A DNA stretch of 64,000 bases from Rikenellaceae bacterium (GTDB lineage: Bacteria > Bacteroidota > Bacteroidia > Bacteroidales > Rikenellaceae): the NCBI GenBank assembly GCA_045637425.1, contig JAZTZL010000010.1, positions 438 through 64,437 on the forward strand, given 5' to 3'. The notes under the pieces were generated by a model that saw only the letters and a program-made list of their open reading frames with translations, was not told where the DNA came from and did no database searches. Positions within the stretch are counted from its first letter, which is position 1. Each line of letters starts with the position of its first letter. The translations under genes were made by a program, and so were the position numbers. Of this stretch, positions 50,980 through 64,000 are shown piece after piece.

Positions 50980-51023
50980 ATAATTTTTAAAACTTTTTCC
51001 TTGCCTATAACAAAAATATTCTC

Positions 51024-51031
51024 TACTTTTG
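51024..51031 (+). promoter_or_regulatory. -7 box TACTTTTG upstream of pilus-like locus
   Basis: TAnnTTTG match 47 nt upstream of the ATG at 51078. Confidence 0.4.
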
Positions 51032-51077
51032 TCCCGAGATATTTTGTCTTTGCATTTTTAATAAAAAATAACTAGTT

Positions 51078-51890
51078 ATGAAATTATTTACACACTTGGC
51101 TTTCATCATATTGGCAGCATTCATTACTGCTTGTAGTAGTGATGAAAAGGAATCTGCCGAATTGGTGGAAATGCACTTCCGAGCAGTTATGCCCGATTCA
51201 AACTTATCAAAATCGGTAGGTTCTGGAAATCTTGTAAACGTGTTGTATGTAGAAGCGATTTCAAACACAGGCAAGAAAGTCCGCTATGAATTTCCTGTAA
51301 CATCAGGATATGTTGATGCAAGAATTTCTTTGGCTAAAGGATTGACCTACGATATCATATTTTGGGCTCAACGAAAAGAGAACAACCCCTATGACAATCT
51401 TGATTTAACAGCAATCAAGATGAATTTACCAACAACCACAACCAATGTGTTGGCAATGGAGCAATATGATGCCTTTTATGCAACATTAAGGAATGTACCC
51501 GCAGAAGACAAAGCTGTTACAGATGTTGAACTAACAAGACCACTTGCTCAGGTAAACGTAGCCCACACAAGAGATGATGCAAAAGACGTGAAAATTAATT
51601 TAGGTTCAATTCCTATGGTCTTTAAGCCACTTGAAGCAAAATTAACCAATGAAGAAAATATTGAGATAAATTTTGAACCTTGTAGACAAAAGATCACACT
51701 TGATGGCCTAACGTATAATCATTTAGCGATGATGTACATATTTGCAACACCTACAGACTACAACACAAGTTTCGTGTTAGACATCATAACAAATGATGAT
51801 AGTAAAATTACGATTGATAATAGTTTGAACGTAAAAGCAAATCACAGAACAAACATTATAAATAGTCTCTCTAGTGATGAGTTCAATTAG
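51078..51890 (+). CDS. Lipoprotein, fimbrillin-like (type V pilus FimA/Mfa1-superfamily?)
   Basis: Lipobox AAFITAC. The mid-region YDAFYATLRNV...VELTRPLAQVNV resembles the conserved fimbrillin strand pattern. It lies in a locus with DUF3575 and Mfa2-like genes. Confidence 0.45.
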   Translation: MKLFTHLAFIILAAFITACSSDEKESAELVEMHFRAVMPDSNLSKSVGSGNLVNVLYVEAISNTGKKVRYEFPVTSGYVDARISLAKGLTYDIIFWAQRKENNPYDNLDLTAIKMNLPTTTTNVLAMEQYDAFYATLRNVPAEDKAVTDVELTRPLAQVNVAHTRDDAKDVKINLGSIPMVFKPLEAKLTNEENIEINFEPCRQKITLDGLTYNHLAMMYIFATPTDYNTSFVLDIITNDDSKITIDNSLNVKANHRTNIINSLSSDEFN

Positions 51891-51917
51891 GTATATCACC
51901 CTTTATAAATTAATAAA

Positions 51918-53153
51918 ATGAAACAATTTGCACGTATATTTCTCATTATCTTCACATTGGGGATATTTGAGGTTCAGGCTCAACAGCACCCAGAGAGTCG
52001 AATCAAATTGGTCTTTCGAGAAAAAAGTGTGGTAATCGATCCGACATTTGACAATAATGCTCAAAGAATCGAGGAAATCATTGCCCTTCTGGAAGAAATT
52101 AGAACCGATAGTACAGCTGAAGTTGTTGAAGTTCAGTTTTGTGGTTCGGCATCACCGGAAGACAGTTATCAGTTGAATAAACAATTGGCGAGAGGCCGTT
52201 TACAAGCCCTTGAACGAATTGTACGAAGACAAATTTCAATCCCGGATAGCATCATTGTTAGAAATGACTCATATATTCCTTGGCACGAATTGAAAGCTGC
52301 GGTAGAGGCTTCCGACATCAGCCACAAAGAAGAAATTCTGTCAATCATCGCAGAAAAACCACGTTTGGTTGCCTACCACAGAAAAGGTGAACAAGTGGAT
52401 ATCCGTGTGGAAAAATTGAAACAATTAGATGGAGGTCGTGTTTGGGAAAGAATGGATAGAGAATTCTTCTCAAAACTTAGAAATGCATTCGCAATAATCC
52501 TCACTCGTAGAGTCAACCTGCCGAAAGTAGAAGGTACTCCTGAATTGGTAAATATCTACATCGAAGCACAAGAGAGTGAAATCGAATACCAAAAACCGTT
52601 TGAAATTGAAAAGGCTCCAGAAGAATGGATGCCGCACCTCTACATCAAAACCAATGGTTTGGCGTTGGCTATGGGTGTGAGCAACTTCGCAGTGGAACTT
52701 GACATTACTAAACATCTGTCTTTCACTCTGCCAATTTACTTCTCGGCGTGGAACTACTTCACATCTGAGCTCAAGTTCAGAACATTCGCAGTTCAACCCG
52801 AAGTGAGATATTGGTTCTCTGAGAAAAATGACGGTTGGTTTACTGGTGCACACTTCGGATTCGCATACTACAACGTTGCGTGGTGTGGTGATTGGAGAAT
52901 CCAAGACTATAGACGTGAGAGTCCTACAATGGGAGGTGGTTTAAGTGTTGGATATAGAAAACCACTTGGAGCAAGCAAACGTTGGAAATTGGAATTCTCA
53001 CTTGGCGGAGGCGTATACGATTTGCATTATGACAAATTCCATAACGAGTCAAATGGAGAACTTGCAAAATCAGGAAGAAAAACATTCATCGGTGTGGATA
53101 ATGCAGCTGTAACGTTAGCATATATGTTTGATTTGAAGAAAGGAGGTAAATAA
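51918..53153 (+). CDS. DUF3575-type outer-membrane beta-barrel protein with N-terminal OmpA-like segment
   Basis: Signal peptide, then an OmpA-like FCGSASPEDSYQLNKQLARGRLQAL. C-terminal barrel IKTNGLALAMGVSNFAVELDI...VQPEVRYWF...GAHFGFAYYNVA is typical of DUF3575. Confidence 0.6.
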   Translation: MKQFARIFLIIFTLGIFEVQAQQHPESRIKLVFREKSVVIDPTFDNNAQRIEEIIALLEEIRTDSTAEVVEVQFCGSASPEDSYQLNKQLARGRLQALERIVRRQISIPDSIIVRNDSYIPWHELKAAVEASDISHKEEILSIIAEKPRLVAYHRKGEQVDIRVEKLKQLDGGRVWERMDREFFSKLRNAFAIILTRRVNLPKVEGTPELVNIYIEAQESEIEYQKPFEIEKAPEEWMPHLYIKTNGLALAMGVSNFAVELDITKHLSFTLPIYFSAWNYFTSELKFRTFAVQPEVRYWFSEKNDGWFTGAHFGFAYYNVAWCGDWRIQDYRRESPTMGGGLSVGYRKPLGASKRWKLEFSLGGGVYDLHYDKFHNESNGELAKSGRKTFIGVDNAAVTLAYMFDLKKGGK

Positions 53154-54241
53154 TGAAAACTTTATTGAGAAAAATATTTCAAGTATTTGTTGTTGTAGCA
53201 TTGATACTTTCTTCGGGCTGTAACGTACACGAATGGCCAGGTCCTCTGAAGTTTATTGACATTAAGTTGAAATTGAACTACAAGACCCCAATGACTGTTG
53301 TTGGCGAGAACTACGAAACTCGTGCAGAAGGCTTATTCCCCTCTGATAGGGATATGAGGTACATTGTTCGAGCATACCCCATTTCAGAAAGTGGTGTAGT
53401 CTCAAAAGAGCACTCTTATGAACATATATTCGTAGACAAAGCATCTGATGGTTATGATTGTGAAGTCGTATTGAGTATCGCTCCTGGAAAATACAAACTA
53501 ATGGTATGGTCGGATATCGTTCCCGTTGGTAGCACTGAAAATGAATACTATGATGCGAAGAACTTTGGTAGTATTCTACTTAAAAATCACGTCGCAAATA
53601 CAGACTATCGTGATGCATTCAGAGGTTGGAAAGAGGTGTATATTGAAACAATTTTAATCAGACCTGAAGAACCTGAAGTATTTGAGATTGAAATGTTGAG
53701 ACCTCTTGGAAAATTTGAATTGGTTTCTGATGACATTCTCGAATTCGTTGAGAGGGAAGAAAAGATTGCAAAATATCGCGTAACAGGTTCTAAGGGGGAT
53801 TCAAAAGGAGACTCTAAGGTTGATATCGACGATTACAAAATCGAAATAGAATATTCAGGTTGGATGCAGGACGAATACTCATTGTTCGAAGATGCCCACA
53901 TTAATGCTCATAAATATAAGTTTGAATCTAAACTTATCAAGATTAATGAAAGAGAGGCTTCGTTAGGTTTCGACTACATCTTCGTAAACGAGGAACCGAA
54001 CACAACTATCCGTATCATCATCTACGACAAGTTCGGAAACTTGGTATCAACATCAGAAGACATTAAGGTGCCAATTGCAAGAAGTCAGCATACTATCTTG
54101 AGAGGTAAATTCTTAACGTCTAAAGCATCAGGAGGTGTATATATCAATCCTGAATTTACAGACGACCACAATATCTTCTTCGGCATGGAACAGCCGGCTC
54201 CTGCTCCGGCTCCTACTCCAGCACCGGCAACTCAAGAATAA
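53153..54241 (+). CDS. Lipoprotein, FimB/Mfa2-like pilus anchor/terminator candidate
   Basis: Lipobox ILSSGC followed by NVHEWP. TAATG junction with the DUF3575 gene. C-terminal PAPAPAPTPAPA low-complexity tail. Confidence 0.45.
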   Translation: MKTLLRKIFQVFVVVALILSSGCNVHEWPGPLKFIDIKLKLNYKTPMTVVGENYETRAEGLFPSDRDMRYIVRAYPISESGVVSKEHSYEHIFVDKASDGYDCEVVLSIAPGKYKLMVWSDIVPVGSTENEYYDAKNFGSILLKNHVANTDYRDAFRGWKEVYIETILIRPEEPEVFEIEMLRPLGKFELVSDDILEFVEREEKIAKYRVTGSKGDSKGDSKVDIDDYKIEIEYSGWMQDEYSLFEDAHINAHKYKFESKLIKINEREASLGFDYIFVNEEPNTTIRIIIYDKFGNLVSTSEDIKVPIARSQHTILRGKFLTSKASGGVYINPEFTDDHNIFFGMEQPAPAPAPTPAPATQE

Positions 54242-54310
54242 GGTGATGACTATGGTTATTAACTTGATGAGTGTGATTGTTGATTAACTTTATCAAGTAA
54301 AATATCAAAT

Positions 54311-54350
54311 AAAGAAGTGCGATCGGATTTCCAATCGCACTTCTTTATTC
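54311..54350 (+). terminator. Terminator after pilus-like locus
   Basis: Perfect 13-bp stem aaagaagtgcgat / atcgcacttcttt followed by attcc. Confidence 0.6.
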
Positions 54351-54352
54351 CG

Positions 54353-54389
54353 AAAAAATAAGCGCTACCACTTTTCGGTAGCGCTTATT
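54353..54389 (-). terminator. Terminator after folB
   Basis: On the minus strand, a 13-bp stem aataagcgctacc / ggtagcgcttatt is followed by tttttt. It lies directly after the folB stop. Confidence 0.7.
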
Positions 54390-54749
54390 CTATATCGACA
54401 TCGTAACACTTACTCTAGTGAGCGGCCCTCCAAGCGGAGGCGCTAATTTCGATACCTTAACCGTAGCCGACTTTAATTGCTCAGGGAAGTTGCTCTTGAG
54501 CGACTCCAAAATGCGACGAGCTACGTTTTCCAGAATGCGCGACGGCTGAGCCATCTGTTCTGCCACTAACTCATAGATTGTCAAATAATTAACAGTCTTA
54601 GTAATATCATCTTCTGTAGCTGCCGTTCCAACGTCTACCATCATCTCAAGCCAAACAAGAAATCGATTGCCAACTTTCTGTTCGAGATCATAACACCCGT
54701 GAGCCGAGTAAAACTCCATCTCCTCTAGTTCGATTTTAACAAGTTCCAT
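54390..54749 (-). CDS. folB: Dihydroneopterin aldolase
   Basis: 119 aa. FYSAHGCYDLEQKVGNRF...VNYLTIYELV fits the FolB tunnelling-fold pattern. Confidence 0.88.
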   Translation of the reverse strand: MELVKIELEEMEFYSAHGCYDLEQKVGNRFLVWLEMMVDVGTAATEDDITKTVNYLTIYELVAEQMAQPSRILENVARRILESLKSNFPEQLKSATVKVSKLAPPLGGPLTRVSVTMSI

Positions 54750-54873
54750 CTTTAATCATATTTTACTGCAAATATATACAATGCCGCTCTTAAATACAAA
54801 TTTTTGAATTACGGCACAAAATTTGTCCATCTGTTATTCAAAACTTTGAAGTTGAATAACCTTATTAAATTTT

Positions 54874-56118
54874 ATGAAAAAAATTACATTAACACTTGCT
54901 GCAATCGCATCTACACTCACGATTTCGGCACAGGTTGCGAACACGGCTCAATCGCACCAAACATTCGAAGACAAACTTATGCAGAACATCGACCATCGAT
55001 TCAGCGAACCTTCGACTCCGAGATTCATCTTCGTAGACCGACAAATGAAATATGCACTCGGTATGGGTGGTAGCGTGAGACTCACCTCATCATTCGGATT
55101 CGGTAAAATTATACCACAGACTCCGGCATATAGTTTCATTCCGGCACAAATCAGAACAGGTGATATTCCGTTGGCTAAATCACAATATCTGATGTCGGCA
55201 AATACATCGCAGATTTTCTTCAAACTCGTAGGTCATAACCCTATTTTGAAAGATTTTACAACATTTGTTTCGATGAATTTCACAGGTGGCGAGTCGGGCA
55301 AGGAGCCACAACTCAGACAAGCATACGTTACCTTCCGAGGCATCACTGCTGGTCGCGCGTGGAGCGCATTCAACGACCTTGCTGCAGTGCCGCCAACCAT
55401 CGACTTCCAAGGTCCCAATGGCGCATCAGAACTGTTGAACTACCAGATTCGCTACACGCTCGATTTGGGTCACCGCTGGAGATTGGCTGCGTCTGCCGAA
55501 ATGCCATCAATTTCCGCTACTTATGGCGAGTATAACACCGAACTCGACCAAAGTATCCCCGACTTCATTATCTATGGTCAATACCAATGGAACAATGGCA
55601 AAAACCACATTCGATTGTCAGGATTGATTCGCAATATGAACTACCACGACGATGAAGCCGATAAAAACCGAATCAACACAGGCTGGGCCGCACAACTCAG
55701 CGGATTAGCAAATATCACTCCGTCACTCACTGCATTCTGGCAAGCAACCTACGGCGAAGGTTTCGGTTCTTACATCAATGACCTGAGTATGCTTGACCTG
55801 GATATGGTACCGAATAATAACACGCAGGGCAAAATGCAATCACTCGAGGCGTGGGCAGGCTACGCAGGGCTGAAGATGGAATTCTCGCCCAGAGTCTTCT
55901 GCTCGGTAACATACAGCCAGGCTAAGGTCTATTCAAAAGATAGTTTCTTCATAGAAAATATGTATAAAACAGGGCAATACATAGCAGGTAACGTATTCTG
56001 GAATCTGACCGAAAACTGCCATATCGGCGCAGAATATCTGCTGGGTAAACGCACAAATATGAATAACGAAGACCGTAGCGCAAACCGAGTAAATCTGTTA
56101 GTTCAATATAATTTCTAA
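54874..56118 (+). CDS. Outer-membrane porin-like beta-barrel protein
   Basis: Signal peptide MKKITLTLAAIASTLTISAQ. Alternating amphipathic strands. The C-terminal beta-signal ends in an aromatic residue (LLVQYNF). Confidence 0.55.
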   Translation: MKKITLTLAAIASTLTISAQVANTAQSHQTFEDKLMQNIDHRFSEPSTPRFIFVDRQMKYALGMGGSVRLTSSFGFGKIIPQTPAYSFIPAQIRTGDIPLAKSQYLMSANTSQIFFKLVGHNPILKDFTTFVSMNFTGGESGKEPQLRQAYVTFRGITAGRAWSAFNDLAAVPPTIDFQGPNGASELLNYQIRYTLDLGHRWRLAASAEMPSISATYGEYNTELDQSIPDFIIYGQYQWNNGKNHIRLSGLIRNMNYHDDEADKNRINTGWAAQLSGLANITPSLTAFWQATYGEGFGSYINDLSMLDLDMVPNNNTQGKMQSLEAWAGYAGLKMEFSPRVFCSVTYSQAKVYSKDSFFIENMYKTGQYIAGNVFWNLTENCHIGAEYLLGKRTNMNNEDRSANRVNLLVQYNF

Positions 56119-56142
56119 TCCCTATTCATTCCTTCTACTGCG

Positions 56143-56184
56143 TCGGAGAGAACTAAAATTCAAAAAAGGTCTCTCCGATTTTTT
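56143..56184 (+). terminator. Terminator after porin gene
   Basis: Stem tcggagag / ctctccga (8 bp with a long 20-nt loop) followed by T6. Confidence 0.45.
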
Positions 56185-56230
56185 ATCTGAAAATTTTCGA
56201 TTGAGGCGTTCAAATTTGAAGAAAAATTTG

Positions 56231-56238
56231 TATATTTG
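56231..56238 (+). promoter_or_regulatory. -7 box TATATTTG upstream of rubrerythrin
   Basis: TAnnTTTG match 35 nt upstream of the ATG at 56273. Confidence 0.4.
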
Positions 56239-56272
56239 TAATCAATATAAACCCTAAAAAAAATCGAAAATT

Positions 56273-56935
56273 ATGAAGAAATATCGTTGTACTGTATGTG
56301 GTTATATCCACGAAGGTGAACTCACAGCAGACTTTGTATGCCCGAAATGCAAAAAACCTGCATCATTCTTTGAAGAAGTAGTTGAAGAAAAAGCAGCAGG
56401 AAATCCTTATGCAGGCACCAAAACTGAAAAGAACCTGATGGACGCTTTCGCAGGAGAAAGCCAAGCTCGCAATAAATATACCTATTTTGCAGAAGTTGCT
56501 CGTCGTGAAGGTTACGAACAACTGGCTGAGATTTTCTTGCAGACTGCTCGCAACGAACAAGAACACGCTCGTCTGTGGTTCGAGGCACTGAACGGTATCG
56601 GCAATACTGCAGAAAACTTATTGCACGCAGCTGAAGGTGAAAACTACGAATGGACAGATATGTATGACCGCTTTGCTAAAGATGCAGAAGAAGAAGGTTT
56701 CGCTGAATTGGCAGAACGTTTCCGCCGTGTTGCTGCAATCGAAAAACAACACGAAGAACGCTACCGCAAACTGCTCAACAACGTCGAAATGAAACAAGTT
56801 TTCGAAAAAGGCGAACAAGTTATGTGGGAATGCCGCGTATGTGGACACATAGTAGTTGGTAACAAGGCTCCGGAAGTTTGCCCAGTATGCAAATACTCTC
56901 AAAGCTACTTCGAAGTAAGAAAAGAAAATTATTAG
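56273..56935 (+). CDS. rbr: Rubrerythrin with rubredoxin-like CxxC...CxxC modules at both termini
   Basis: N-terminal CTVCGY...CPKC. Diiron four-helix core ([31 protein letters not shown]). C-terminal CRVCGH...CPVC. Confidence 0.9.
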
Positions 56936-56987
56936 TATTTATACTCCAATAATTGTTTTCACGTTATTTAATTAAAAATTTAGAGCT

Positions 56988-57512
56988 ATGTTAAGTCAGA
57001 AATTGCAAGATGCTATCAATGCACAAATCAACGCCGAATTGTGGTCGGCATACCTCTACCTGGCGATGTCTATGGACGCTGAAGCTAAGGGTTACAAAGG
57101 CGTAGCAAACTGGTTTTTCGTTCAGTTCCAAGAAGAACAAGACCACGCTCGCATCTTTATGAACTATCTGAATTCACGCGACGTTAAGGTTGAACTCAAA
57201 CCTATCGAAGCTGTAGATACAACTTGGAATTCTGTTCTGGATATGTACAAACAGACTCTCGAACACGAAAAACGAGTTACTGCAATGATTAACAACATCG
57301 CTGCTATCGCAAGAGAAGATAACGACTTCGCATCTATAAACCGTATGGTTTGGTTCATTGACGAACAGGTGGAAGAAGAGGAATCGGCTCGAGATATGAT
57401 TACTGCACTTGAGGCTGTCGAAGGCAATAAGTACGGTATGTATATGTTAGATAAAGAATTGGCGACAAGAACTTACGCTGCGCCATCTCCGCTGACAACT
57501 ACTGAAGAATAA
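56988..57512 (+). CDS. ftnA: Non-heme ferritin
   Basis: 174 aa. INAELWSAYLYLAMS, FQEEQDHA and LEHEKRVT are ferroxidase-centre residues. Confidence 0.9.
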   Translation: MLSQKLQDAINAQINAELWSAYLYLAMSMDAEAKGYKGVANWFFVQFQEEQDHARIFMNYLNSRDVKVELKPIEAVDTTWNSVLDMYKQTLEHEKRVTAMINNIAAIAREDNDFASINRMVWFIDEQVEEEESARDMITALEAVEGNKYGMYMLDKELATRTYAAPSPLTTTEE

Positions 57513-57537
57513 TTATTAATGTTCAATTTTGAAATGA

Positions 57538-57572
57538 GGGGAATGCTCTATTGAGGAGCAATCCCCTTTTTT
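57538..57572 (+). terminator. Terminator after ferritin (possibly bidirectional, abuts convergent carrier-protein gene)
   Basis: Stem ggggaatgctc / gagcaatcccc (one mismatch) followed by T6. Confidence 0.6.
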
Positions 57573-57573
57573 A

Positions 57574-57792
57574 TTACTCCATAAAGTTTACGACATCTGC
57601 TACGGTAACAAACGAGCGAATGTCCGCACCGGTCAGTTTCTTGCCGAATTCGTCATCAAACAACACAATCAACGCCAACTTCGACATCGAATCATATTGG
57701 TCAATATCGGCCAATTTAGTATCTTCTGCGAGCGTTCCAGGCTCGATGTCAAGCATCTCCTCAAAGAGTCGAATTTTATCTGTACGATTCAT
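57574..57792 (-). CDS. Stand-alone acyl/peptidyl carrier protein (carrier 2)
   Basis: 72 aa, acidic four-helix size. Phosphopantetheine-attachment context IDQYDSMSKLALI. Confidence 0.7.
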   Translation of the reverse strand: MNRTDKIRLFEEMLDIEPGTLAEDTKLADIDQYDSMSKLALIVLFDDEFGKKLTGADIRSFVTVADVVNFME

Positions 57793-57795
57793 ATT

Positions 57796-58026
57796 CTATT
57801 GTGCATTTTTTAGTTTCGTAATCAAATCCCATATAGACTGCGCCGAATTGAAATTTTCAGGGTCGAGTTCCGAGATGCGAATCTGCACCCCGAACGCGTC
57901 GTCTAATTCGGAGATTATCGATGCAATGTCGAACGAATCCAACACACCATCATCAACCAGCGCACTCTCACAAGCAAAATCGACATCTGGTCTGATTGTC
58001 TTCAAAATTTCCAGTAATTTATCCAT
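57796..58026 (-). CDS. Stand-alone carrier protein, DltC-like (carrier 1)
   Basis: 76 aa. Attachment motif GVLDSFDIASII. Little similarity to the neighbouring carrier. Confidence 0.7.
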   Translation of the reverse strand: MDKLLEILKTIRPDVDFACESALVDDGVLDSFDIASIISELDDAFGVQIRISELDPENFNSAQSIWDLITKLKNAQ

Positions 58027-58029
58027 AGT

Positions 58030-58830
58030 TCATAATTTTAACATCGAAAATGAATATTTATTAGTCGAGCCAAATCCCATTTTTTTGTAGAGATTCTGCG
58101 CCGATGAGTTATCCTGTCGCACCCAAAGCGAGTAGCGCGAATTAACGTTGCGGCAGACGCGAACAAACTCCGACACCAACTGTCGAGCAATCCCCTGCCC
58201 TCGTAATTCGGGCTCCACGACGATGTGTGCCAAAACATTCTTGCCCGACTGCGTATCATAGTGCAGCGCTGCACGAGGCTCGCCACCTACCAATGCAATC
58301 AAAATCACACCCTTCGCCAGCAATGATTCACACTCTGCAACTTCAATATAGTCGCCCGTATATGGGTCGAATGTTGAATTGAACAGATTTACTGCATACT
58401 CAACCTCTCCCAACGATGATGCAGGGCGCACATCGCAACCACAATCCTCTGAATAAAGTTCAATATCATCATACTTAGCCTCGTACAATACTCTCGAAAT
58501 ATGAGGCGACCAACCGCTACGCTGCCAATAATCAGACTCTGCGAGTGGGAATCCACCTGCACGATGGACAATCTCCAGCACAAAAGTACCGTCTGCAAGC
58601 AGCAATGGTTCGCTCAAGTCATTCAGATAGTAATATACCCGCTGACAACGAGCCTGCTCAACCAGCAATGCCAAATTATTCTCAGTACAGCAATACGACA
58701 ACCTACCAGACTGCACAATGCGTTCTACTTGCGTGCGCATCATATAGTTGTTTGTCAGTGACTTTGGCCGACAATACACCTCCAGCAATCTGTTCAATTC
58801 CGCAAAATCTGCTATCCTATTGGCACTCAT
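58030..58830 (-). CDS. Two-domain GNAT-family N-acyltransferase
   Basis: The C-terminal ~110 aa carry the GNAT CoA motif VEPELRGQGIARQLV and NSSAQNLYKKMGF. The N-terminal ~150 aa are unassigned. 14-nt overlap with the adenylation gene. Confidence 0.75.
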   Translation of the reverse strand: MSANRIADFAELNRLLEVYCRPKSLTNNYMMRTQVERIVQSGRLSYCCTENNLALLVEQARCQRVYYYLNDLSEPLLLADGTFVLEIVHRAGGFPLAESDYWQRSGWSPHISRVLYEAKYDDIELYSEDCGCDVRPASSLGEVEYAVNLFNSTFDPYTGDYIEVAECESLLAKGVILIALVGGEPRAALHYDTQSGKNVLAHIVVEPELRGQGIARQLVSEFVRVCRNVNSRYSLWVRQDNSSAQNLYKKMGFGSTNKYSFSMLKL

Positions 58831-60343
58831 AAATTCGTTTCAATTCCACTCTGTCAATCTTTCCGTTTCGGTTATAGGGCATCTGTCCGAGCAAATCAAC
58901 CCTACTCGGAACCATATATTTTGGCAACTGCTCACGAATAACTGCCACCACATCTATCGGCTGAGAATCAACCGTTGTATAATACAGCACAATCTGTCCA
59001 CGCTGCGAATCGTAAATGCACGCAGCACTCGTTACCCTCTCAATAGAGCAGGCAACAGCCTCAATTTCCCCCAATTCGATGCGGTATCCCTGATGTTTTA
59101 TCTGGTTATCTCGACGAGATACGAATTCGAGTTCACCGCGAGAATTACACCGAACAAGGTCTCCCGTACGGTAAACCCTGTCACAATATAGATTATGCAG
59201 AGGATTCTGAACAAATACTTCATCGCTATACGATTGGTTGTTGAAGTACCCCAAAGCTACTCCCGTTCCCCTCACATAGAGTTCGCCAATCTCACCCTGT
59301 TCTGCGAGTTGCCCACTATCATTGAGCACAAACACCTGCTTATTCCGACAAGCCGTTCCTATCGGTATAAATTGGTCATCTTCGAACTCGCTATCAACTA
59401 CATAGTATGTGCAATCAACCGTGATTTCCGTAGGACCATACAAGTTTACAAACTGCACATCAGGCAAATTTTCTCGCCAAACCCGAAGATATTTCGCACA
59501 CATTGGCTCGCCCGCAAAAAATACCTTTTTCAAATAGCGAGGAATCTGCTGTTCAAATATATTGCTATTCCCGACCATCACTACAGCAGAAGTTGCCCAC
59601 AACACTACGCTTATTCTATTATCATTCAGATAGTTAATCAGCAATTTCGGAAATATAAAAAATTTATTGGGAACTATGTGCAGTTCGGCTCCCGTACGCA
59701 TCGAAATGTATATATCCTTAACCGACGCATCAAAATAGAAAGGAGTCTGGTTAGCAATATTATCGCTCGCCGAAAAGCCAAAAGTTTCGACAAGCCAGTT
59801 TGTTAAGTCCATTACTCCTCGATGAGAAACGACTACGCCCTTGGGTATTCCCGTAGAACCGCTGGTAAAGATTACATACAACGGATCGCAATCAATCATC
59901 TGGAGTTCAATCTGCGCTAGTTCAGTCACATTAACTTCGTGCGCAACTATTTCGGCATAGTCTAATCTGGCTCCAGCAAACCCTATCTCGTCGAGCAGAT
60001 TTAGGTGCTGCGGAGTAATCGAAACGGCAGCAATCGGATTGAGTTGCTCAACAATCGACCTCAACCGAGAAGCAGGCATAGACGAATCAATCGGCACATA
60101 AAAATTACCACTTGCGACTACGCCCATAAATGCAACAATGCTCTCCAGCCGTCGCTCGACAAAGACAATAACAGGCTGTCGCACAATACCAAGCGACTCA
60201 GCTATGGCACTGCCGATACTTTGCGCTGCGCAGTACCACTGCGCGAAAGTCAAACTACTGCGTTCGTCTACAAGCGCACGCTTATCAGCAGACCTCTCTG
60301 CCGTAGCTCGTAACCAACTTATGACGTTTGTTTGCATAATCAT
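58817..60343 (-). CDS. Stand-alone amino-acid adenylation enzyme (ANL superfamily, DltA-like)
   Basis: 508 aa. Core motifs LYVIFTSGSTGIPKGV (A3), YGPTE (A5), YRTGDLV (A8) and NGKIDR (A10). Confidence 0.9.
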   Translation of the reverse strand: MIMQTNVISWLRATAERSADKRALVDERSSLTFAQWYCAAQSIGSAIAESLGIVRQPVIVFVERRLESIVAFMGVVASGNFYVPIDSSMPASRLRSIVEQLNPIAAVSITPQHLNLLDEIGFAGARLDYAEIVAHEVNVTELAQIELQMIDCDPLYVIFTSGSTGIPKGVVVSHRGVMDLTNWLVETFGFSASDNIANQTPFYFDASVKDIYISMRTGAELHIVPNKFFIFPKLLINYLNDNRISVVLWATSAVVMVGNSNIFEQQIPRYLKKVFFAGEPMCAKYLRVWRENLPDVQFVNLYGPTEITVDCTYYVVDSEFEDDQFIPIGTACRNKQVFVLNDSGQLAEQGEIGELYVRGTGVALGYFNNQSYSDEVFVQNPLHNLYCDRVYRTGDLVRCNSRGELEFVSRRDNQIKHQGYRIELGEIEAVACSIERVTSAACIYDSQRGQIVLYYTTVDSQPIDVVAVIREQLPKYMVPSRVDLLGQMPYNRNGKIDRVELKRIYECQ

Positions 60344-61449
60344 CTATCATACAACTGATTTGGGTTAGTTATCAATCCCTCCTCGAATATTTCGTCATCT
60401 TCCACTATGGGTAAAATATCATCTGTAGCTATCTCAAACGATGTTATGCCCAATGATATACCGATTCCAAAACCACAGCACAATACGCGGATTGTTTGCG
60501 ATTTGCAACTCTCTCCATATCTATCACATAGTGAAAGTATTGCCGATGCTCCAGAGGTATTTCCATAACGATCGAGCGTTATGGGCATCTTTTCAAAATC
60601 AATCTTCACCTTCTTGGCTATCTGTTTGAGAATGTATAAATTGGCCTGATGAAATGCAAAGCAGTCGTAATCATCTACCGTAGTAGACGTTTTTCTCAAG
60701 AAATCGCGAATCAGCTTCGGAACATCAAAAATCGTAAACGTAAAGACCGAAGTCCCCTGAATAAACGAATTCAACAACGAACGCGGATTACCGTCCTGAC
60801 ACATAACCACTTGCGGATCGGCATTCAGATTGCGATAACCACCGCCCGGAATAATCATATATTTGAATCCCGAACCGTCGCTGCGCACCATAGCCTTAAT
60901 TCTATCGCTCATATTATCGCTCTTTTCCAGCAGCATTGCGCCACCAGCCTCGCCAAATAACATCGCAGAACTGCGGTCTGTCGGACACACCGATTTTCCC
61001 GCCGTATCTCCCACAATCAGCAACGCTTTCGATATGTCACCCGTATTCATAATCGACGCTACGGTCTGCATTCCTATAACCAACGACGAACACCCCAAAC
61101 TAATATCATAACAAACTGCATCACAGGGTATTCCCAAGCGATACTGCAGCACAAATGCCGTAGCAGGCCGCCTATAATCGGGACTATGCGACGCAAATAT
61201 CAACGCCCCAATCTCCTCTGGTTGAATACCTTTTTTTGCCAATAATTCGCATGCAGCTCGAAAACCTAAGTCACTGCAAGTCTGATGTTCCAGAGTTCTG
61301 CGGGTCTCCTCCACGCCCGTCATTTCAATAAACTTCTCAACCTCAGACTCACCGAATACCGACTTATAACTACGCGTCGTAACAACCTGCTTTGGAACTG
61401 CACAAGCTACACCCGAGACCCGTATATTGTTGAATTCAAAATATGCCAT
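60340..61449 (-). CDS. KAS-III (FabH)-like enzyme
   Basis: 369 aa. Cys-His-Asn triad contexts SLGCSSLV, FHQANLYIL and GNTSGASAIL. ATGA overlap with the adenylation gene. Confidence 0.85.
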   Translation of the reverse strand: MAYFEFNNIRVSGVACAVPKQVVTTRSYKSVFGESEVEKFIEMTGVEETRRTLEHQTCSDLGFRAACELLAKKGIQPEEIGALIFASHSPDYRRPATAFVLQYRLGIPCDAVCYDISLGCSSLVIGMQTVASIMNTGDISKALLIVGDTAGKSVCPTDRSSAMLFGEAGGAMLLEKSDNMSDRIKAMVRSDGSGFKYMIIPGGGYRNLNADPQVVMCQDGNPRSLLNSFIQGTSVFTFTIFDVPKLIRDFLRKTSTTVDDYDCFAFHQANLYILKQIAKKVKIDFEKMPITLDRYGNTSGASAILSLCDRYGESCKSQTIRVLCCGFGIGISLGITSFEIATDDILPIVEDDEIFEEGLITNPNQLYDR

Positions 61450-61452
61450 AGT

Positions 61453-62085
61453 CTAAAAATCCATCTTCTTTGCAGGGTAACCAATAACACGAGTATTGGG
61501 TTTTATGTTCGAAAATACAATACTTCCAGCGCAAATGAAGGCATCATCACCAACTTTCAATCCGTTGAGCACAACGGCGTGGCTACCGACAAAGACACGC
61601 TTACCGAGCTGCGCAGTAGTTACATTGGCAAATCCCGTAATAGTCGAGTAGTCACCTACCGTAGCATCTTGTCCAACCATACAGCCTGCCAGATGCACAA
61701 AGTCGCCTATCTGTGCGCAGTCGCCAACTGACGATCGTCCACCAATAAAACAGCCCCTGCCCAACTTCGCCTTCTCGTTAACCATTGCCAGCGGGTGAAT
61801 CAACGAAATGAATTCGGCTCCTTTGGCACTCAACTGCTCGACAAGTTTAGCCTTCACCGCAGGATTGGCTACACCCAAAACGTAGCGCTCATTTTCACCT
61901 ACAACCCAATCCTTTATGGTACCGATGACCTTGTAATCGCAATCCTTACCATCTAATGCGTGCAGATTGTCATCTATCAGCCCCTTAATCTGCCAATCAT
62001 AATTATTGTACTCAATCACAGCCTTCGCCAGATAGAGAGCCTCGCGTCCAAATCCGCCCGCACCAACTATTATTATATCCAACAT
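61453..62085 (-). CDS. NeuD/PglD-family sugar N/O-acyltransferase (left-handed beta-helix)
   Basis: N-terminal Rossmann-like IIIVGAGGFGREAL followed by hexapeptide repeats (IGDFVHLAGCMVGQDATVGDYSTITGFANV...). Confidence 0.8.
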   Translation of the reverse strand: MLDIIIVGAGGFGREALYLAKAVIEYNNYDWQIKGLIDDNLHALDGKDCDYKVIGTIKDWVVGENERYVLGVANPAVKAKLVEQLSAKGAEFISLIHPLAMVNEKAKLGRGCFIGGRSSVGDCAQIGDFVHLAGCMVGQDATVGDYSTITGFANVTTAQLGKRVFVGSHAVVLNGLKVGDDAFICAGSIVFSNIKPNTRVIGYPAKKMDF

Positions 62086-62099
62086 AAATACTTATTTTT

Positions 62100-63128
62100 C
62101 TAACTTCTATATAGAGGGAAAAAACTGCTCTCGATATCAAATTCAGGGTCGGCATCTACACGTTTCTGTACCAATTTCGAGTAAATTTCCTGCAAAAATA
62201 TCTCCTTGCCAATCGAGAACCGACACTCATAATTCTTATTGAACGAGCGCTTAAACCTGAACAGATTGTCCTCGCCCGAGCCAACTCCGCCACCCAAATG
62301 CAGCGTCTTATAGCCGTGTTCCACACCCCACAACGCAGCCTCATAGAGCAGTAAATTGCCAGCTGCGTAGTTGCGATACTCAACGCGCGAACCTGCCAAA
62401 TGGTAGTGCATACGTCCATTCGCAAACAACATTATAGCCACAGATATTACAACACCCTCATATACTGCATAGAATATCAGATAGTTATCTTTAAGTTCCT
62501 GTGCAAGTGAATCGTAAAACTCGTGTTCGAAATAGTAATACTCCTTCGCCTCATCTCGACTCATCGTTGAGTTGTATATCTCGATGAACTCATCAAATAG
62601 CTCAGCACCCTGCCCCGAACGAATTTCAACGCCACGCTTGGCAGCCTTTCTAATAGAAGTTCTATTCTGATGAATCATATTCTGCAGTATAACCTCCTCT
62701 GAATCGAGCGCCATTTCAATGGTATATCCCAAATCTATGACTGATGCTACCGAGCGCATATTATCTGCATTTCGCAACTGAGGGTGATAACGCACAAAAT
62801 TTGAAACAATATGCCGATTGCGCATTGACTCAACATACTCATCATAAAATCGTCGAATATTCTCGTGTGAAGCATCACCCTCAAAGAGCACTCCACCATA
62901 ACCATAGGGCGTAATAGCATCAAACCAGCAATCATCAACTATGCGTTTCATATAGACATAAATCGCTCGCAGCGACGCCGAATCGTAATACATCAACTCG
63001 GGCTCACCATCGCCGTGCAGTTTGAATCCCTTCACATAGCCGCTCAGGTAGTAGACATCATACTGCGCGAATGAGGTTACAACTGCGTCCCAGCGTTCCG
63101 AATCGGTTATATCTATTATTTCAATCAT
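62100..63128 (-). CDS. FemAB-like / GNAT-fold aminoacyl (peptidyl) transferase family protein
   Basis: 342 aa. The C-terminal half MHYHLAGSRVEYRNYAAGNLLLYEAALWGVEHGYKTLHLGGG resembles FemX/FemAB-type transferases. The assignment is from motif memory. Confidence 0.6.
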   Translation of the reverse strand: MIEIIDITDSERWDAVVTSFAQYDVYYLSGYVKGFKLHGDGEPELMYYDSASLRAIYVYMKRIVDDCWFDAITPYGYGGVLFEGDASHENIRRFYDEYVESMRNRHIVSNFVRYHPQLRNADNMRSVASVIDLGYTIEMALDSEEVILQNMIHQNRTSIRKAAKRGVEIRSGQGAELFDEFIEIYNSTMSRDEAKEYYYFEHEFYDSLAQELKDNYLIFYAVYEGVVISVAIMLFANGRMHYHLAGSRVEYRNYAAGNLLLYEAALWGVEHGYKTLHLGGGVGSGEDNLFRFKRSFNKNYECRFSIGKEIFLQEIYSKLVQKRVDADPEFDIESSFFPLYRS

Positions 63129-64000
63129 TCAGTATCATTTTTATCTTTTCACCCAACATATCAATCTCAGCTGAGGTGTATCTCGCATCACAATGTATTG
63201 ACAACATTCTGTTGCTAAAATCCATTACCTCGGTACTACCCGACTCCAACGGCCACAATATCGCAGGATATATTTGTTCAGATATAAGACTATTGCGTAC
63301 TGCATCACGTTGTTGCCCACTCTCAAATAGCAACACTGCCGAAAAGGGATTACACTTGCCATTTTCGGGTTTAAGGCAACACACCTCCGCCCCCAGCGAC
63401 GCAATCAATCTCGTCCAATTCTCGCGTTTGGCAGCATACCACCCCGTAGTGTCAAAATGGTCAATTACCTTCCGGCTACGAATATCTGGCGCACAAATCG
63501 CCATTTCCGACATTGCATCTTCACACCTTCTGAACAGCGTCAAATACTCCTCTTTTGACAGTTCAACACCCGAAAGGTAATCGCGTTTCAAATCCATTGC
63601 CCGCCACCTCAATGCACCCACGCAATCCTCACTCGCCAGCTCCATATCGGGCAGCGGCAAATTACGAGGCGACCAGATGATTCCACCCTCTGCTATGGGT
63701 AACGACTTCCTCAACGAAGCCACACACCAATCGGCATCACTACCCGCAGCCCACTCACCTGTCAAATCGTGCGAATGGTCCTCGATTACGGGCACGGGCA
63801 GGTGTGCATTGCTACGCACGCCTCTCAGTCCGAAATAATTGACCCGCAGCAGAGCATCTCCTTCGCAAAAATCGAGTTGCGAAATAACCCGTTCATCATC
63901 TGCAGTCGGAAAATCTTCATAAGTCATCATTTCCACCCCAGATTCACTAAGATACGCCGCCACCTCGCCACAAAAATAGGCAGGCAACCACAAGCGTTTC
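63121..64000 (-). CDS. DegT/DnrJ/EryC1/StrS-family sugar aminotransferase (N-terminus beyond right edge)
   Basis: Frame is open to the window edge. PLP-Lys context ASLRKSLPIAEGGII. The length seen (~293 aa) is the C-terminal ~3/4 of a typical enzyme. 8-nt overlap with the FemAB-like gene. Confidence 0.75.
   Translation of the reverse strand, partial: KRLWLPAYFCGEVAAYLSESGVEMMTYEDFPTADDERVISQLDFCEGDALLRVNYFGLRGVRSNAHLPVPVIEDHSHDLTGEWAAGSDADWCVASLRKSLPIAEGGIIWSPRNLPLPDMELASEDCVGALRWRAMDLKRDYLSGVELSKEEYLTLFRRCEDAMSEMAICAPDIRSRKVIDHFDTTGWYAAKRENWTRLIASLGAEVCCLKPENGKCNPFSAVLLFESGQQRDAVRNSLISEQIYPAILWPLESGSTEVMDFSNRMLSIHCDARYTSAEIDMLGEKIKMILND

Follow-up and report, generated by a model that had tools for sequence, protein, structure and literature searches.

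In the 64,000-nt window analyzed here, from a Rikenellaceae bacterium, eight intact, co-directional open reading frames lie on the minus strand from position 57574 to beyond 64000. From the convergent end, these encode a 72-aa carrier (ACPa, 57574-57792), a 76-aa carrier (ACPb, 57796-58026), a 266-aa tandem GNAT (58030-58830), a 508-aa stand-alone NRPS-type adenylation enzyme (A, 58817-60343), a 369-aa KAS III-type condensing enzyme (60340-61449), a 210-aa NeuD/PglD/VioB-type hexapeptide N-acyltransferase (61453-62085), and a 342-aa FemAB/FemX-like transferase (62100-63128). The last, g8 (63121-64000), is 5' truncated where it runs off the window edge and was assigned from a structure model and motifs as a divergent DegT-fold PLP enzyme. 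The genes overlap by 14, 4, and 8 nt or are separated by gaps of 3, 3, 3, and 14 nt, coordinates and junctions that agree with a preliminary description of this DNA. The motifs that it had called intact (A3/A8/A10, Cys-His-Asn, two carrier serines, a CoA loop, and a hexapeptide repeat) are present in the translations and profiles, and profile searches verified its domain calls for seven of the eight genes, g8 being the exception. Homologues were numerous for every gene. Compared with a relative 92% identical in DNA, the six larger genes had dN/dS values of 0.03-0.19 (dS up to 0.7) and ACPb a value of 0.27, while that of ACPa was undefined because dS was 0. These values show purifying selection.

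A 61-nt convergent spacer separates the ferritin stop (57512) from the ACPa stop (57574) and holds a hairpin at 57536-57568. The plus-strand hairpin has a folding energy of -21.9 kcal/mol (z = -4.2) and runs into U6; on the minus strand, the energy is -18.9 kcal/mol and the U-tract is poor. A simple terminator pattern scan did not flag this hairpin because of one internal A/A mismatch. The stem-loop and U-tract (57536..57572, no strand assigned) are likely the terminator for ferritin and, more weakly so, for the cassette, and the convergent terminator proposed earlier for both is therefore borne out, at lower strength on the cassette strand.

For the sequence past base 64000, we used the corresponding locus of the 92%-identical relative (L087), which is collinear with window positions 48836-63993 at 92.3% identity. 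There, the order is a terminator, the promoter-like motif TACATTTG, GT4, Bac_transf, g8, the remaining genes to ACPa, and convergent ferritin. Past the equivalent of 64000, the operon adds just two genes, for a PglC-like initiating transferase and a GT4 glycosyltransferase. Because these two alone lie between g8 and the upstream terminator in L087, the cassette makes up most of a self-contained 10-gene operon, of which it is the distal eight genes, and this layout is kept at 8% divergence. TldD/PmbA and EF-G lie upstream, beyond that terminator; the operon sits among housekeeping genes. The cassette had been placed at the edge of a surface-glycan locus, with a look past 64000 expected to reveal assembly genes. 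The glycan link held, as did the glycosyltransferase and the initiating transferase, but a large capsule locus did not: upstream in L087 we found no Wzx/Wzy, UpxY/Z, dehydratase, or canonical DegT.

The A enzyme matched AMP-binding, AMP-binding_C, and TIGR01733 (339.7 bits; cutoff, 317.4), and its translation contains A3 TSGSTGIPKG, A8 RIELGEIE, and A10 NGKIDR. Its matches to TycA (234 bits), GrsA (216 bits), and DltA (190 bits) are those of a generic A domain, and its specificity code, D-A-K-L-F-A-L-V-D-K, does not allow the amino acid substrate to be read. ACPb scored 20.7 bits for PP-binding (cutoff, 20.8) and carries its serine in LDSFD. Its best match was the DltC model NF003464 (E = 1e-9), yet at 38.3 bits against a cutoff of 68, and the A enzyme reached 281 bits with the DltA model TIGR01734, well under its cutoff of 559.85. 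The label "DltA-like" is therefore apt only loosely, in that DltA and DltC were the best matches among named equivalog models. ACPb homologues (44 to 80% identical) follow A-GNAT in both Bacteroidota and Firmicutes loci, and we propose that ACPb is the aminoacyl carrier for the adenylation enzyme.

Between A and ACPb, Bacteroidota and Firmicutes alike encode either a tandem GNAT or a formyltransferase, the latter in L022, L062, and L074. The GNAT, whose family comprises 116 clusters at E <= 1e-30, has a degenerate N-terminal half and a C-terminal half with an RGQGIA CoA loop, and its Pfam matches are confined to residues 173-256. Its model (pLDDT 91.6) matches the folds of VipF, MAB_4324, WecD, and MshD, the last of which acetylates the amine of a cysteinyl-aminosugar. 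The occasional formyltransferase in this place argues that the slot caps an amine, and we propose that the tandem GNAT N-acetylates the alpha-amine of the carrier-bound amino acid. However, the closest structures to the slot formyltransferase are sugar N-formyltransferases, so the capping enzyme could act on a sugar amine instead. Loci in which a formyltransferase replaces the GNAT while KAS, ketoreductase (KR), and ACPa are kept contradict the idea that the GNAT itself transfers a hydroxyacyl group to the amino acid.

The KAS III gene, which runs 4 nt into the start of A and is translationally coupled to that gene, matched ACP_syn_III and ACP_syn_III_C. Its Cys-His-Asn triad aligns with C112/H244/N274 of Escherichia coli FabH, and an acidic tail of about 35 aa extends its C terminus. 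This enzyme is much more conserved (70 to 79% identity in most Bacteroidota loci and 55 to 64% in a few) than A (43 to 60%) or the GNAT (29 to 37%). Its PDB relatives include PqsD and BioZ, FabH-like enzymes with amino-acid-derived or unusual primers. ACPa scored 22.7 bits for PP-binding (cutoff, 20.8), carries its serine in YDSMS, and best fits AcpP-type models, every one below cutoff. Its homologues (46 to 61% identical) close the module in about 30 loci, and a FabD-like Acyl_transf_1 gene lies near ACPa in L020, L022, and L031, in the first two beside an MBL-fold gene. We propose that ACPa is the malonyl or extended-chain carrier; ACPa is missing from L004-type loci, which do have KAS and KR, and a dedicated extender carrier is therefore not universal.

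The NeuD-like enzyme has PglD_N and Hexapep domains (TIGR03570, 155.6 bits; cutoff, 160.8). Its nearest structures, VioB, WeeI, PerB, and PglD, all N-acylate NDP-4-amino-4,6-dideoxyhexoses, and we propose that it moves the finished acyl group to the 4-amino of a nucleotide sugar. The FemAB-like transferase (FemAB, 56.8 bits; Acetyltransf_6, 63.2 bits; Weissella FemX, E = 3e-9) is presumably aminoacyl-tRNA dependent. It always pairs with g8, including in loci without carrier genes, and the two form an independent module, which the preliminary description did not recognize. g8 has no stop before the window edge and lacks about 47 N-terminal residues. It had no Pfam match in the profile search, but its confident AF2 model (pLDDT 93.5) matches sugar aminotransferases; the model and the invariant motifs IEDHTHD and SLRK...AEGG assign it to their fold. 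The preliminary call of a DegT-type aminotransferase thus stands at the level of fold and motif, including the lysine, though not of Pfam. g8 is also homologous to an "unknown 317 aa" gene that pairs with ATP-grasp in other loci.

The genes are real, and many gut Bacteroidota carry the set; gene identities, catalytic motifs, and a conserved gene order are shown by the data. Cultured carriers of the cassette include Odoribacter laneus YIT 12061 and Bacteroides stercorirosoris DSM 26884. A core of PglD-like enzyme, KAS III, A, tandem GNAT, and DltC-like carrier occurs beside Pgl-type amino-sugar genes in about 40 Bacteroidota species, and relatives of the A enzyme occur in 530 species genomes, which rules out a one-off. 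In about 30 related loci, the cassette is set among Bac_transf, glycosyltransferases, DegT, and a PglF-like dehydratase, in keeping with the glycan-synthesis link drawn earlier, and the usual order is Bac_transf-NeuD-KAS-A-GNAT-ACPb-SDR-(SDR)-ACPa-MBL-DegT-(Polysacc_synt_2). A has no Bacteroidota locus without KAS among 40 and is adjacent to it in 38. An MBL-fold gene, possibly a thioesterase, closes the module in 22 loci. In several loci, there is an additional KAS-KR-ACPa set with the look of a 3-hydroxyacyl module that stands alone. Firmicutes have A, GNAT, and carrier without any KAS, ahead of a DltB-like MBOAT, and this trio shares the A-enzyme specificity code. The present operon has no ketoreductase, a gap that the preliminary description did not note, compared with 32 of 32 comparable loci that have one; of 33 such loci, it alone lacks both KR and MBL.

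We consider it probable that the product is an N-acyl group on a glycan amino sugar. Construction of that group by KAS-dependent extension is a more tentative proposal, to which we give somewhat less than an even chance, and we infer every substrate, the step order, and the acceptor. The operon, ordered GT4, PglC-like phosphoglycosyl transferase, g8, FemAB-like, PglD-like, KAS III, A, tandem GNAT, ACPb, and ACPa, would make a lipid-linked glycan primer that begins with an amino sugar bearing an unusual amide-linked side chain. The A enzyme would activate an alpha-amino acid and load it onto DltC-like ACPb, where the GNAT would acetylate its alpha-amine. KAS III would then condense the N-acetyl-aminoacyl thioester with malonyl-ACPa to 4-acetamido-3-oxoacyl-ACPa. 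In relatives, one or two SDR ketoreductases would reduce this product; with no dedicated reductase in this lineage, the chain would remain a beta-keto amide unless housekeeping FabG reduced it. A UDP-4-amino-4,6-dideoxy-HexNAc-type sugar would receive the chain on its 4-amino group from the PglD-like enzyme; the PglC-like enzyme would then place that sugar on undecaprenyl phosphate, and GT4 would add a second sugar. Separately, g8 and the FemAB-like enzyme may aminate and/or tRNA-dependently aminoacylate the same or a neighboring position. The two carrier kinds, one DltC-like and one AcpP-like, support this route. A "mini NRPS/FAS hybrid" feeding an amino sugar is still the best reading. Counting against the route, besides the missing ketoreductase, the operon lacks a 4,6-dehydratase and a canonical DegT for the proposed acceptor, which must then be encoded elsewhere, or g8 substitutes. 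In the literature searched, we found no determination of the cassette's product, no biochemical or structural data on any member of the family, and no glycan with a 4-acylamino-3-hydroxy/oxo-acyl group.

Chain extension might not occur at all, an alternative that we regard as unlikely but serious. A, ACPb, and GNAT would make N-acetyl-aminoacyl-S-ACPb for direct transfer to the sugar amine by the PglD-like enzyme, while KAS III and ACPa separately make a short beta-keto or beta-hydroxyacyl group, of the acetoacetyl or 3-hydroxybutanoyl type, to be placed on a different amine, such as one created by g8 or one on a FemAB-added amino acid. Amino sugars that bear N-acetyl-D/L-alanyl, N-acetylglycyl, or N-(3-hydroxybutyryl)-alanyl groups are already known, the KAS-less Firmicutes trio evidently works alone, and the second KAS-KR-ACPa sets, which resemble that of F. 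psychrophilum, point the same way. However, the constant association of A with KAS in Bacteroidota argues against this alternative, as does a single PglD-like transferase where two acyl groups would need moving. Alternatively, the output of the carrier genes could stay unattached to the glycan, as a free small molecule or a lipid head group (an N-acyl amino acid or a tetramate-like or beta-keto acid product), with incidental glycan neighbors; we consider this very improbable. Although A, carrier, and KAS III are common natural-product starter logic and the MBL-fold gene that closes related modules could be a thioesterase, the PglD-like and PglC-like linkage holds strictly in Bacteroidales, Chitinophagales, Saprospiraceae, and Lewinella, and this operon has no release enzyme, transporter, or MBL gene.

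DltA and DltC, as the best matches of A and ACPb among named equivalog models, and the Firmicutes trio with its identical code ahead of an MBOAT would fit esterification of hydroxyls on a surface polymer or lipid by the ACPb-bound amino acid, with KAS III acting by CerJ-type acyl transfer instead of condensation. We rate this as very improbable. No MBOAT or DltD-like gene was found in the window (where the absence of dltB and dltD had already been remarked), in L087, or in the 40 Bacteroidota loci; the DltA and DltC scores are far under cutoff; the KAS III triad retains Asn, like condensing enzymes; and D-alanylation serves to add a positive charge, which N-capping would abolish. Least probable of all is that the operon is in decay, being what is left of a larger locus after loss of the reductase, thioesterase, dehydratase, and aminotransferase, and now has no defined product. 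The singular lack of KR and MBL and the housekeeping surroundings would suit such decay, but the eight reading frames are intact, their junctions are tidy, the six larger genes have low dN/dS values, and the relative keeps an identical 10-gene layout.

The preferred reading, extension of an aminoacyl primer for an amino sugar, has precedents in known systems. The usual order in relatives follows PglF/E/D/C logic with an inserted carrier module. In F. psychrophilum, wfpC-G (KAS, ACP, KAS, KR, and a PglD homologue) are the predicted route to 3,5-dihydroxyhexanoyl, assembled on ACP for transfer to UDP-Qui2NAc4N (PMC6519341). Likewise, 4-amino-4,6-dideoxy sugars are known to carry N-acetyl-aminoacyl and N-formyl groups (PMC3210612).

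The cassette consists of eight co-directional ORFs on the minus strand, running from 57574 to the window edge. The ORF listing agreed exactly with the preliminary description in the overlaps (14, 4, and 8 nt) and gaps (3, 3, 3, and 14 nt). In the window lineage, the gene for the carrier protein ACPa starts 3 nt past that for the second carrier, ACPb, and the terminator comes next. The spacer to the convergent ferritin gene is filled by a stem-loop at 57536 to 57568 followed by a U-tract (-21.9 kcal/mol, with 0 of 200 shuffles as good), and folding supports a terminator shared with ferritin. A pattern-based terminator scan did not flag this hairpin because it contains one mismatch. At the other end, the last gene, g8 (63121 to the window edge), shows no stop codon before position 64000 and lacks about 47 N-terminal residues relative to its full-length homologues. 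A 179-aa ORF on the plus strand (57551 to 58090) was rejected as an artefact, with no homologue among 86 loci; it runs antisense to ACPa, ACPb, and the end of GNAT and had ousted the true carriers in a longest-ORF call.

Context past base 64000 was taken from L087, a relative 92% identical in DNA, and not from the source genome. This 53.8-kb contig is collinear with the window from 48836 to 63993 at 92.3% nucleotide identity, the ferritin, rubrerythrin, porin, and FolB genes included, and members of its cluster with over 90% identity carry the annotation of Rikenellaceae MAGs. In L087, only two genes stand ahead of the cassette: one for a PglC-like initiating phosphoglycosyl transferase (Bac_transf, 211 aa) and one for a GT4 glycosyltransferase. 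Upstream of the GT4 gene are a strong terminator hairpin and the motif TACATTTG, which fits the Bacteroidetes TAnnTTTG promoter element, and further upstream lie two TldD/PmbA genes and EF-G. This arrangement argues that the cassette belongs to an operon that is complete in itself, with 10 genes in about 8.4 kb; the large capsule locus implied by its earlier placement at the edge of a surface-glycan locus is not seen in L087. The initiating transferase and glycosyltransferase that were to be looked for past 64000 are thus present, but UpxY/UpxZ and Wzx/Wzy are not. With its limits taken from L087, the operon has no flippase, polymerase, UpxY/Z, 4,6-dehydratase, or canonical DegT gene, and L087 does not show the set that marks a Bacteroides-type CPS locus (UpxY/UpxZ, Wzx, Wzy, and several glycosyltransferases). 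Ten other window ORFs that we checked have mostly housekeeping functions. Amid housekeeping genes, the plus strand at 30325 to 31617 encodes a 430-aa protein with a PAPS-reductase domain and DUF3440 that is seemingly unrelated to the cassette.

Pfam and NCBIfam backed seven of the eight family assignments made earlier; none of the eight proteins has a specific NCBIfam model of its own. The adenylation enzyme (A) reached 339.7 bits against TIGR01733 (cutoff, 317.4) and is thus an NRPS-type amino-acid adenylation domain. Its A3, A8, and A10 cores, described as intact, were visible in the translation, and D205 and K495 fall at Stachelhaus positions 235 and 517. The label "DltA-like" holds only loosely: a stand-alone adenylation enzyme with a dedicated carrier is shared with Dlt, but A falls far below the cutoffs of the DltA equivalogs (TIGR01734, 281.1 versus 559.85 bits; NF003417, 290.1 versus 476 bits), and DltA structures rank below TycA, ProA, and GrsA among its PDB matches. 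The specificity code, read from FDASVK, LWATS, FFAGE, and NLYGPTEITVD with the register checked on the LgrA alignment, is DAKLFALVDK in the window and D-A/G-K-L-F-A-L-V-D-K across relatives. It is common to Bacteroidota and Firmicutes members, and nearly every member of the family has Lys at position 239. We take its outer residues to be as in a Glu code and positions 299, 322, 330, and 331 to be as in the EntF Ser code; no substrate, D-alanine included, was assignable from DAKLFALVDK. A PDB score of 373 bits to LgrA, considered as a hint of glycine specificity, was set aside because it is the sum of two A-domain matches (177 and 194 bits). Thousands of A homologues were found at 57 to 60% identity, and relatives occur in 530 species-level genomes (best, 60% identical), so the cassette is not a one-off. 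A search of plasmid proteins returned only generic NRPS domains at no more than 36% identity.

Both carriers keep the serine of the DS-x motif, as had been noted. ACPb is matched best by DltC (NF003464, 38.3 bits versus 68; PP-binding, 20.7 versus 20.8), and ACPa is matched best by AcpP-type models (PP-binding, 22.7 bits versus 20.8). The putative thiolase-fold enzyme carries the N and C domains of ACP_syn_III (Pfam, 59.4 and 71.8 bits), as a KAS III should, and its Cys-His-Asn triad aligns with C112, H244, and N274 of E. coli FabH. It scores below the cutoffs of the housekeeping FabH models (NF006829, 203.1 versus 249 bits; TIGR00747, 152.2 versus 292.1 bits), and its PDB relatives include PqsD and BioZ, FabH-like enzymes with unusual primers. 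At its C terminus (60340 to 60450), an acidic extension of about 35 residues past the FabH core (…DDILPIVEDDEIFEEGLITNPNQLYDR) may serve the carriers or A as a docking element. The KAS III gene adjoins A in 38 loci, without exception, and overlaps it by 4 nt in the window. Identity to most Bacteroidota loci is 70 to 79% for KAS III, 43 to 60% for A, and 29 to 37% for GNAT.

The NeuD-like protein scores just below the TIGR03570 cutoff (155.6 versus 160.8 bits) and above those of PglD_N (36.4) and Hexapep (61.9). Its nearest structures, VioB, WeeI, PerB, and PglD, all N-acylate NDP-4-amino-4,6-dideoxyhexoses. The FemAB-like protein matched PF02388 (56.8 bits versus 24) and PF13480 (63.2 versus 22), and it reached 44 bits versus 500 for the FemX equivalog; tRNA use is predicted. 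Pfam finds PF00583 (48.2 bits), with an RGQGIA loop, in only the C-terminal third of the GNAT, and a structural model (pLDDT, 91.6) gave a tandem GNAT with fold matches to VipF, MAB_4324, MshD, and WecD. A word-indexed homologue search returned only nine GNAT relatives because the family evolves fast; an exhaustive profile search returned 116 clusters (50% identity) at E <= 1e-30 and 987 at E <= 1e-10.

The last gene had been called a DegT aminotransferase. When g8 and 31 relatives were compared with Pfam, there was no match at E <= 1, PF01041 (DegT) included, and sequence and profile searches of the PDB gave nothing significant for g8 (best E = 0.12, to a DegT-family transaminase). We modelled g8 via P0121, a full-length protein 98% identical to it, on an alignment of 32 homologues (pLDDT, 93.5; pTM, 0.91). 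Its best PDB fold matches were almost all sugar aminotransferases, and the top 28 were exclusively so (E of about 1e-11, TM up to 0.67, 11 to 16% identity), among them Spr1654, WlaRG, PseC, WbpE, ArnB, DesI, and perosamine synthase. The family has two invariant motifs: IEDHTHD, the counterpart of "ED..H" in DegT enzymes, and SLRK142-x4-AEGG, the counterpart of their "SxxxxK-x4-GEGG" motif with the Schiff-base lysine. Therefore, despite the lack of a Pfam match, the DegT call holds at the level of fold and motif, but not at that of sequence.

The g8 family (window 63121 to 64000 and P0121 to P0240) numbers at least 866 proteins of about 340 aa that have no Pfam or NCBIfam model and are unnamed or "hypothetical," and it is homologous to the "unknown 317 aa" gene of related loci (21% identity, E = 3e-11). 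It always adjoins a FemAB-like or an ATP-grasp gene. The g8 and FemAB-like pair occurs in 4 of 86 related loci besides the window lineage, and also in Bacteroidales glycan loci without any carrier genes. One of these, L090, has the pair beside Bac_transf, a small GNAT, a PglF-like dehydratase, and a canonical DegT, and another, L091, has it beside a small GNAT, ATP-grasp, GT2, and DegT; in other loci, the g8 homologue is paired with ATP-grasp instead. Both the pairs without carrier genes and the exchange of partner point to g8 plus an amide-forming partner as an independent, exchangeable module. Because a canonical DegT stands alongside in loci of these types, g8 is probably not simply the pathway aminotransferase.

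For the wider comparison, ORFs were called in the 80 best loci and six metagenome loci, and the proteins were clustered. The 80 best matches include about 40 Bacteroidota species genomes with the cassette, and the Bacteroidota architecture extends over Bacteroidales, Odoribacter, Butyricimonas, Prevotellaceae, Muribaculaceae, Chitinophaga, Saprospiraceae, and Lewinella. In its canonical form, the genes run Bac_transf, NeuD-like, KAS III, A, tandem GNAT, ACPb, SDR ketoreductase, (SDR), ACPa, MBL-fold protein, DegT, and (Polysacc_synt_2 dehydratase), with GT4 and GT2 genes upstream; Odoribacter laneus YIT 12061 and Bacteroides stercorirosoris DSM 26884 are cultured strains that have it. This order looks like PglF/E/D/C amino-sugar logic with a carrier-protein module inserted. 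In Firmicutes and a few other phyla, A, tandem GNAT, and ACPb are followed by MBOAT and a large polysaccharide-deacetylase-domain protein (or a different 364-aa protein), which amounts to a dlt-like operon with one extra gene. Such operons of Clostridia and other Firmicutes (L032 to L086) have a GNAT or a formyltransferase between A and the carrier and then MBOAT, as in L059 (9995 to 15851) of Anaerosphaera multitolerans and L081 of Hungatella effluvii, and their A code is often identical to the Bacteroidota code. We found no description of this A-GNAT-carrier-MBOAT variant.

Substitutions in single slots bear on what the genes do. Three loci (L022, L062, and the Lachnospiraceae dlt-like operon L074) have a 282-aa Formyl_trans_N protein instead of the GNAT in the slot from A to ACPb, which argues that this slot serves to cap an amine with acetyl or formyl. 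By analogy with the F-A-PCP start of the linear gramicidin synthetase LgrA, the most economical target would be the alpha-amine of a carrier-bound amino acid, because the capping gene travels with A and the carrier even where there are no sugar-nucleotide genes. PDB matches of the formyltransferase (sugar N-formyltransferases, 61 bits; Met-tRNA formyltransferase, 50 bits; LgrA F domain, about 45 to 46 bits) all lie within about 15 bits and do not separate a carrier-bound from a sugar-bound amine. Transfer by GNAT of a 3-hydroxyacyl group from ACPa to the amino acid was considered and rejected, since the formyltransferase replaces GNAT where KAS, ketoreductase, and ACPa are kept. A FabD-like Acyl_transf_1 gene in the ACPa/MBL part of L020, L022, and L031 argues for malonate as the load of ACPa. 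The NeuD-like slot upstream of KAS holds a small GNAT in three loci, and therefore it always holds an acyltransferase.

All 32 comparable loci, those with at least 4 kb of downstream sequence, have one to three SDR ketoreductases, and most also have an MBL-fold gene; the window lineage has neither. Judged by these genomes, the reductase-free minimal architecture of the window appears unusual. The chain would either stay a beta-keto amide, be reduced by a housekeeping FabG, or have its ketone processed by another enzyme. In L004 (12691 to 21530; the same in L005, L006, and L009; uncultured Bacteroidales RUG11775), the gene for the DltC-like carrier is followed directly by a tandem array of eight paralogous PF14397 genes ("sugar-transfer associated ATP-grasp," about 384 aa each; copies 2 to 7 share 51 to 62% identity with copy 1), and many other loci have one to four PF14397 copies between ACPb and the reductase. 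These arrays suggest that the carrier-derived group receives several residues one after another.

In the pathway that we propose, A would load an alpha-amino acid on ACPb, and GNAT would cap the amine of the bound residue, a step that might also stop lactam formation after extension. KAS III would take the capped aminoacyl thioester as its primer and condense it with malonyl-ACPa, and in the relatives the beta-keto group would be reduced next. The PglD-like enzyme would then move the chain to the 4-amine of a UDP-amino sugar, the PglC-like enzyme would put the acylated sugar on a lipid carrier, and GT4 would extend it. An amide-linked acyl group on a glycan amino sugar is probably the product, while the specific KAS III extension route, from A through GT4, we put at somewhat below an even chance. 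More doubtfully, the combination of A, an N-capping enzyme (acetyl or formyl), a DltC-like carrier, KAS III, an AcpP-like carrier, and a PglD-like enzyme may make a class of glycan decoration of which we found no report. In dozens of Bacteroidota species of the gut and the environment, a bacillosamine-type sugar would then bear, through an amide bond, a gamma-(acyl)amino-beta-keto/hydroxy ("statine-like") chain obtained by extending an N-capped amino acid in polyketide fashion. In Clostridia, this same capped aminoacyl-carrier unit would feed Dlt-like MBOAT export, and the window would hold the minimal, reductase-free (beta-keto) form.

The KAS III route has to be weighed against direct transfer of an N-acetyl-aminoacyl group, in which case KAS and ACPa would supply a short acyl group of their own. 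We consider direct transfer rather unlikely but credible, as it would yield decorations that are chemically known, namely, N-acetyl-alanyl, N-acetylglycyl, and N-(3-hydroxybutyryl)-alanyl amino sugars (PMC3210612; PMC7685785); a gamma-acylamino-beta-hydroxyacyl glycan substituent, such as extension and reduction would give, was not found in the literature. Dlt-like esterification would suit the stand-alone A and its DltC-like carrier, but it is unlikely: as described earlier, there is no DltB (MBOAT) or DltD in the window, nor in L087 or any Bacteroidota locus, and the DltB-like partner is confined to the Firmicutes-type relatives. A free metabolite as the product is unlikely as well. Of the Pgl-type 4-amino-sugar set, the operon holds PglD-like and PglC-like genes and, in g8, a candidate aminotransferase, but no dehydratase; the canonical relatives have all four.

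The small gene set might also be read as the decaying remnant of a larger locus. Between the window and L087, dN/dS is 0.03 to 0.19 in the six larger genes, whose dS reaches 0.7, and 0.27 in ACPb; for ACPa it is undefined (dS = 0). Decay is thus unlikely, and the 10-gene layout appears to be kept by selection. Divergence between window 57574 to 64000 and L087 6206 to 12764 is a mosaic, with dS of 0.15 for A, about 0 to 0.02 for the carriers, 0.64 for the GNAT gene between them, and 0.38 to 0.71 for KAS, NeuD, FemAB, and g8, which suggests recent recombination of short segments inside the operon. Taken together, the comparisons leave the preliminary description largely right about a real feature, with corrections to the size of the locus, to its commonness, and to the looseness of "Dlt-like." On the gene content, the cassette appears to be a form of carrier-protein-dependent N-acyl tailoring of amino sugars, which is itself a known kind.

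Surface glycans influence how gut Bacteroidota are recognized by the immune system, how sensitive they are to phages, and how their strains compete, and much of the antigenic variety of these glycans lies in non-sugar substituents whose genes remain uncharted. The cassette is predicted to be a conserved route to one such substituent. Solving it would give a function to the tandem-GNAT, g8 PLP, and A-adjacent KAS III families, all three of which so far lack a model or go by generic names only, and could explain the making of N-acyl-aminoacyl amino sugars, long known from structural chemistry. It would also show whether polyketide-type extension acts inside glycan synthesis and would define the Dlt-like variant in Clostridia. 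With 10 genes, the window operon is the smallest version and therefore convenient for reconstitution.

No description of this gene combination was found in the literature, and a DNA search of E. coli genomes for the O123 cluster gave no match. The glycans of E. coli O123 and Salmonella O58 carry N-[(S)-3-hydroxybutanoyl]-D-alanyl on Qui4N, those of some Pseudoalteromonas and Aeromonas strains have N-acetyl-alanyl-Qui3N or -Qui4N, and that of Shigella dysenteriae 7 has N-acetylglycyl-Qui4N. Parts of the cassette recall several known systems. With Dlt of Firmicutes (DltA, DltC, DltB, and DltD) it shares the stand-alone adenylation enzyme and small dedicated carrier, and same-code A orthologues precede a DltB-like MBOAT in Clostridia; unlike Dlt, the window has no MBOAT or DltD, an extra N-capping enzyme, a Lys at Stachelhaus position 239, and scores far below the equivalog cutoffs. 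As in the F-A-PCP module of LgrA, an amine-capping enzyme stands beside an adenylation enzyme and a carrier, and the F domain is matched by the GNAT-replacing formyltransferase of some loci (sugar N-formyltransferases slightly better); here, however, the proteins are separate, acetyl is the usual predicted cap, and a condensation domain is absent. The mycothiol synthase MshD transfers acetyl to the alpha-amine of a cysteine that is joined to an amino sugar by an amide bond. Like MshD and other tandem-GNAT enzymes, our GNAT has a two-GNAT fold with the CoA loop in the C-terminal half only, a likeness at the level of fold (11 to 16% identity). The closest solved relative of the FemAB-like protein is FemX of Weissella viridescens (UDP-MurNAc-pentapeptide:L-alanine transferase), which has a similar length, has no coiled-coil insert, and acts on a soluble UDP-linked amine; the match is only 3e-9 in E value, over the C-terminal half, and the FemAB-like protein differs in its glycan operon and its obligate pairing with the g8 PLP enzyme.

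In the butirosin AHBA side chain (BtrI/J/K/H/G) and the perosamine tetronate of Vibrio cholerae O1, an acyl or aminoacyl chain is built on a dedicated carrier and amide-linked to an amino sugar, by other enzyme families (ATP-grasp, decarboxylase, and LuxE-like) and without KAS III. The Pgl bacillosamine pathway of Campylobacter jejuni uses the dehydratase PglF, the aminotransferase PglE, the acetyltransferase PglD, and the phosphoglycosyl transferase PglC. Its counterparts here are an adjacent PglD-like and, in L087, PglC-like gene, with PglD among the nearest structures of the NeuD-like protein, and in the canonical relatives also DegT and Polysacc_synt_2 dehydratase; the window operon differs in having no PglF-like or canonical PglE gene and in its predicted donor, an acyl-carrier thioester. 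The closest published case, and the sole precedent that we found, is wfpC-G of Flavobacterium psychrophilum (KAS, ACP, KAS, ketoreductase, and a PglD homologue), predicted to build 3,5-dihydroxyhexanoyl on a dedicated ACP for transfer to UDP-Qui2NAc4N, a role assigned from sequence and the known O-polysaccharide structure (PMC6519341). It has a ketoreductase, which the window does not, and has no adenylation enzyme, tandem GNAT for capping, or DltC-like carrier, all three of which are in the window. Both are Bacteroidota glycan loci with KAS III-type synthases, a dedicated ACP, and a PglD/NeuD-type transferase near Pgl-type genes, and in both the predicted acyl donor is bound to a carrier instead of being acetyl-CoA.
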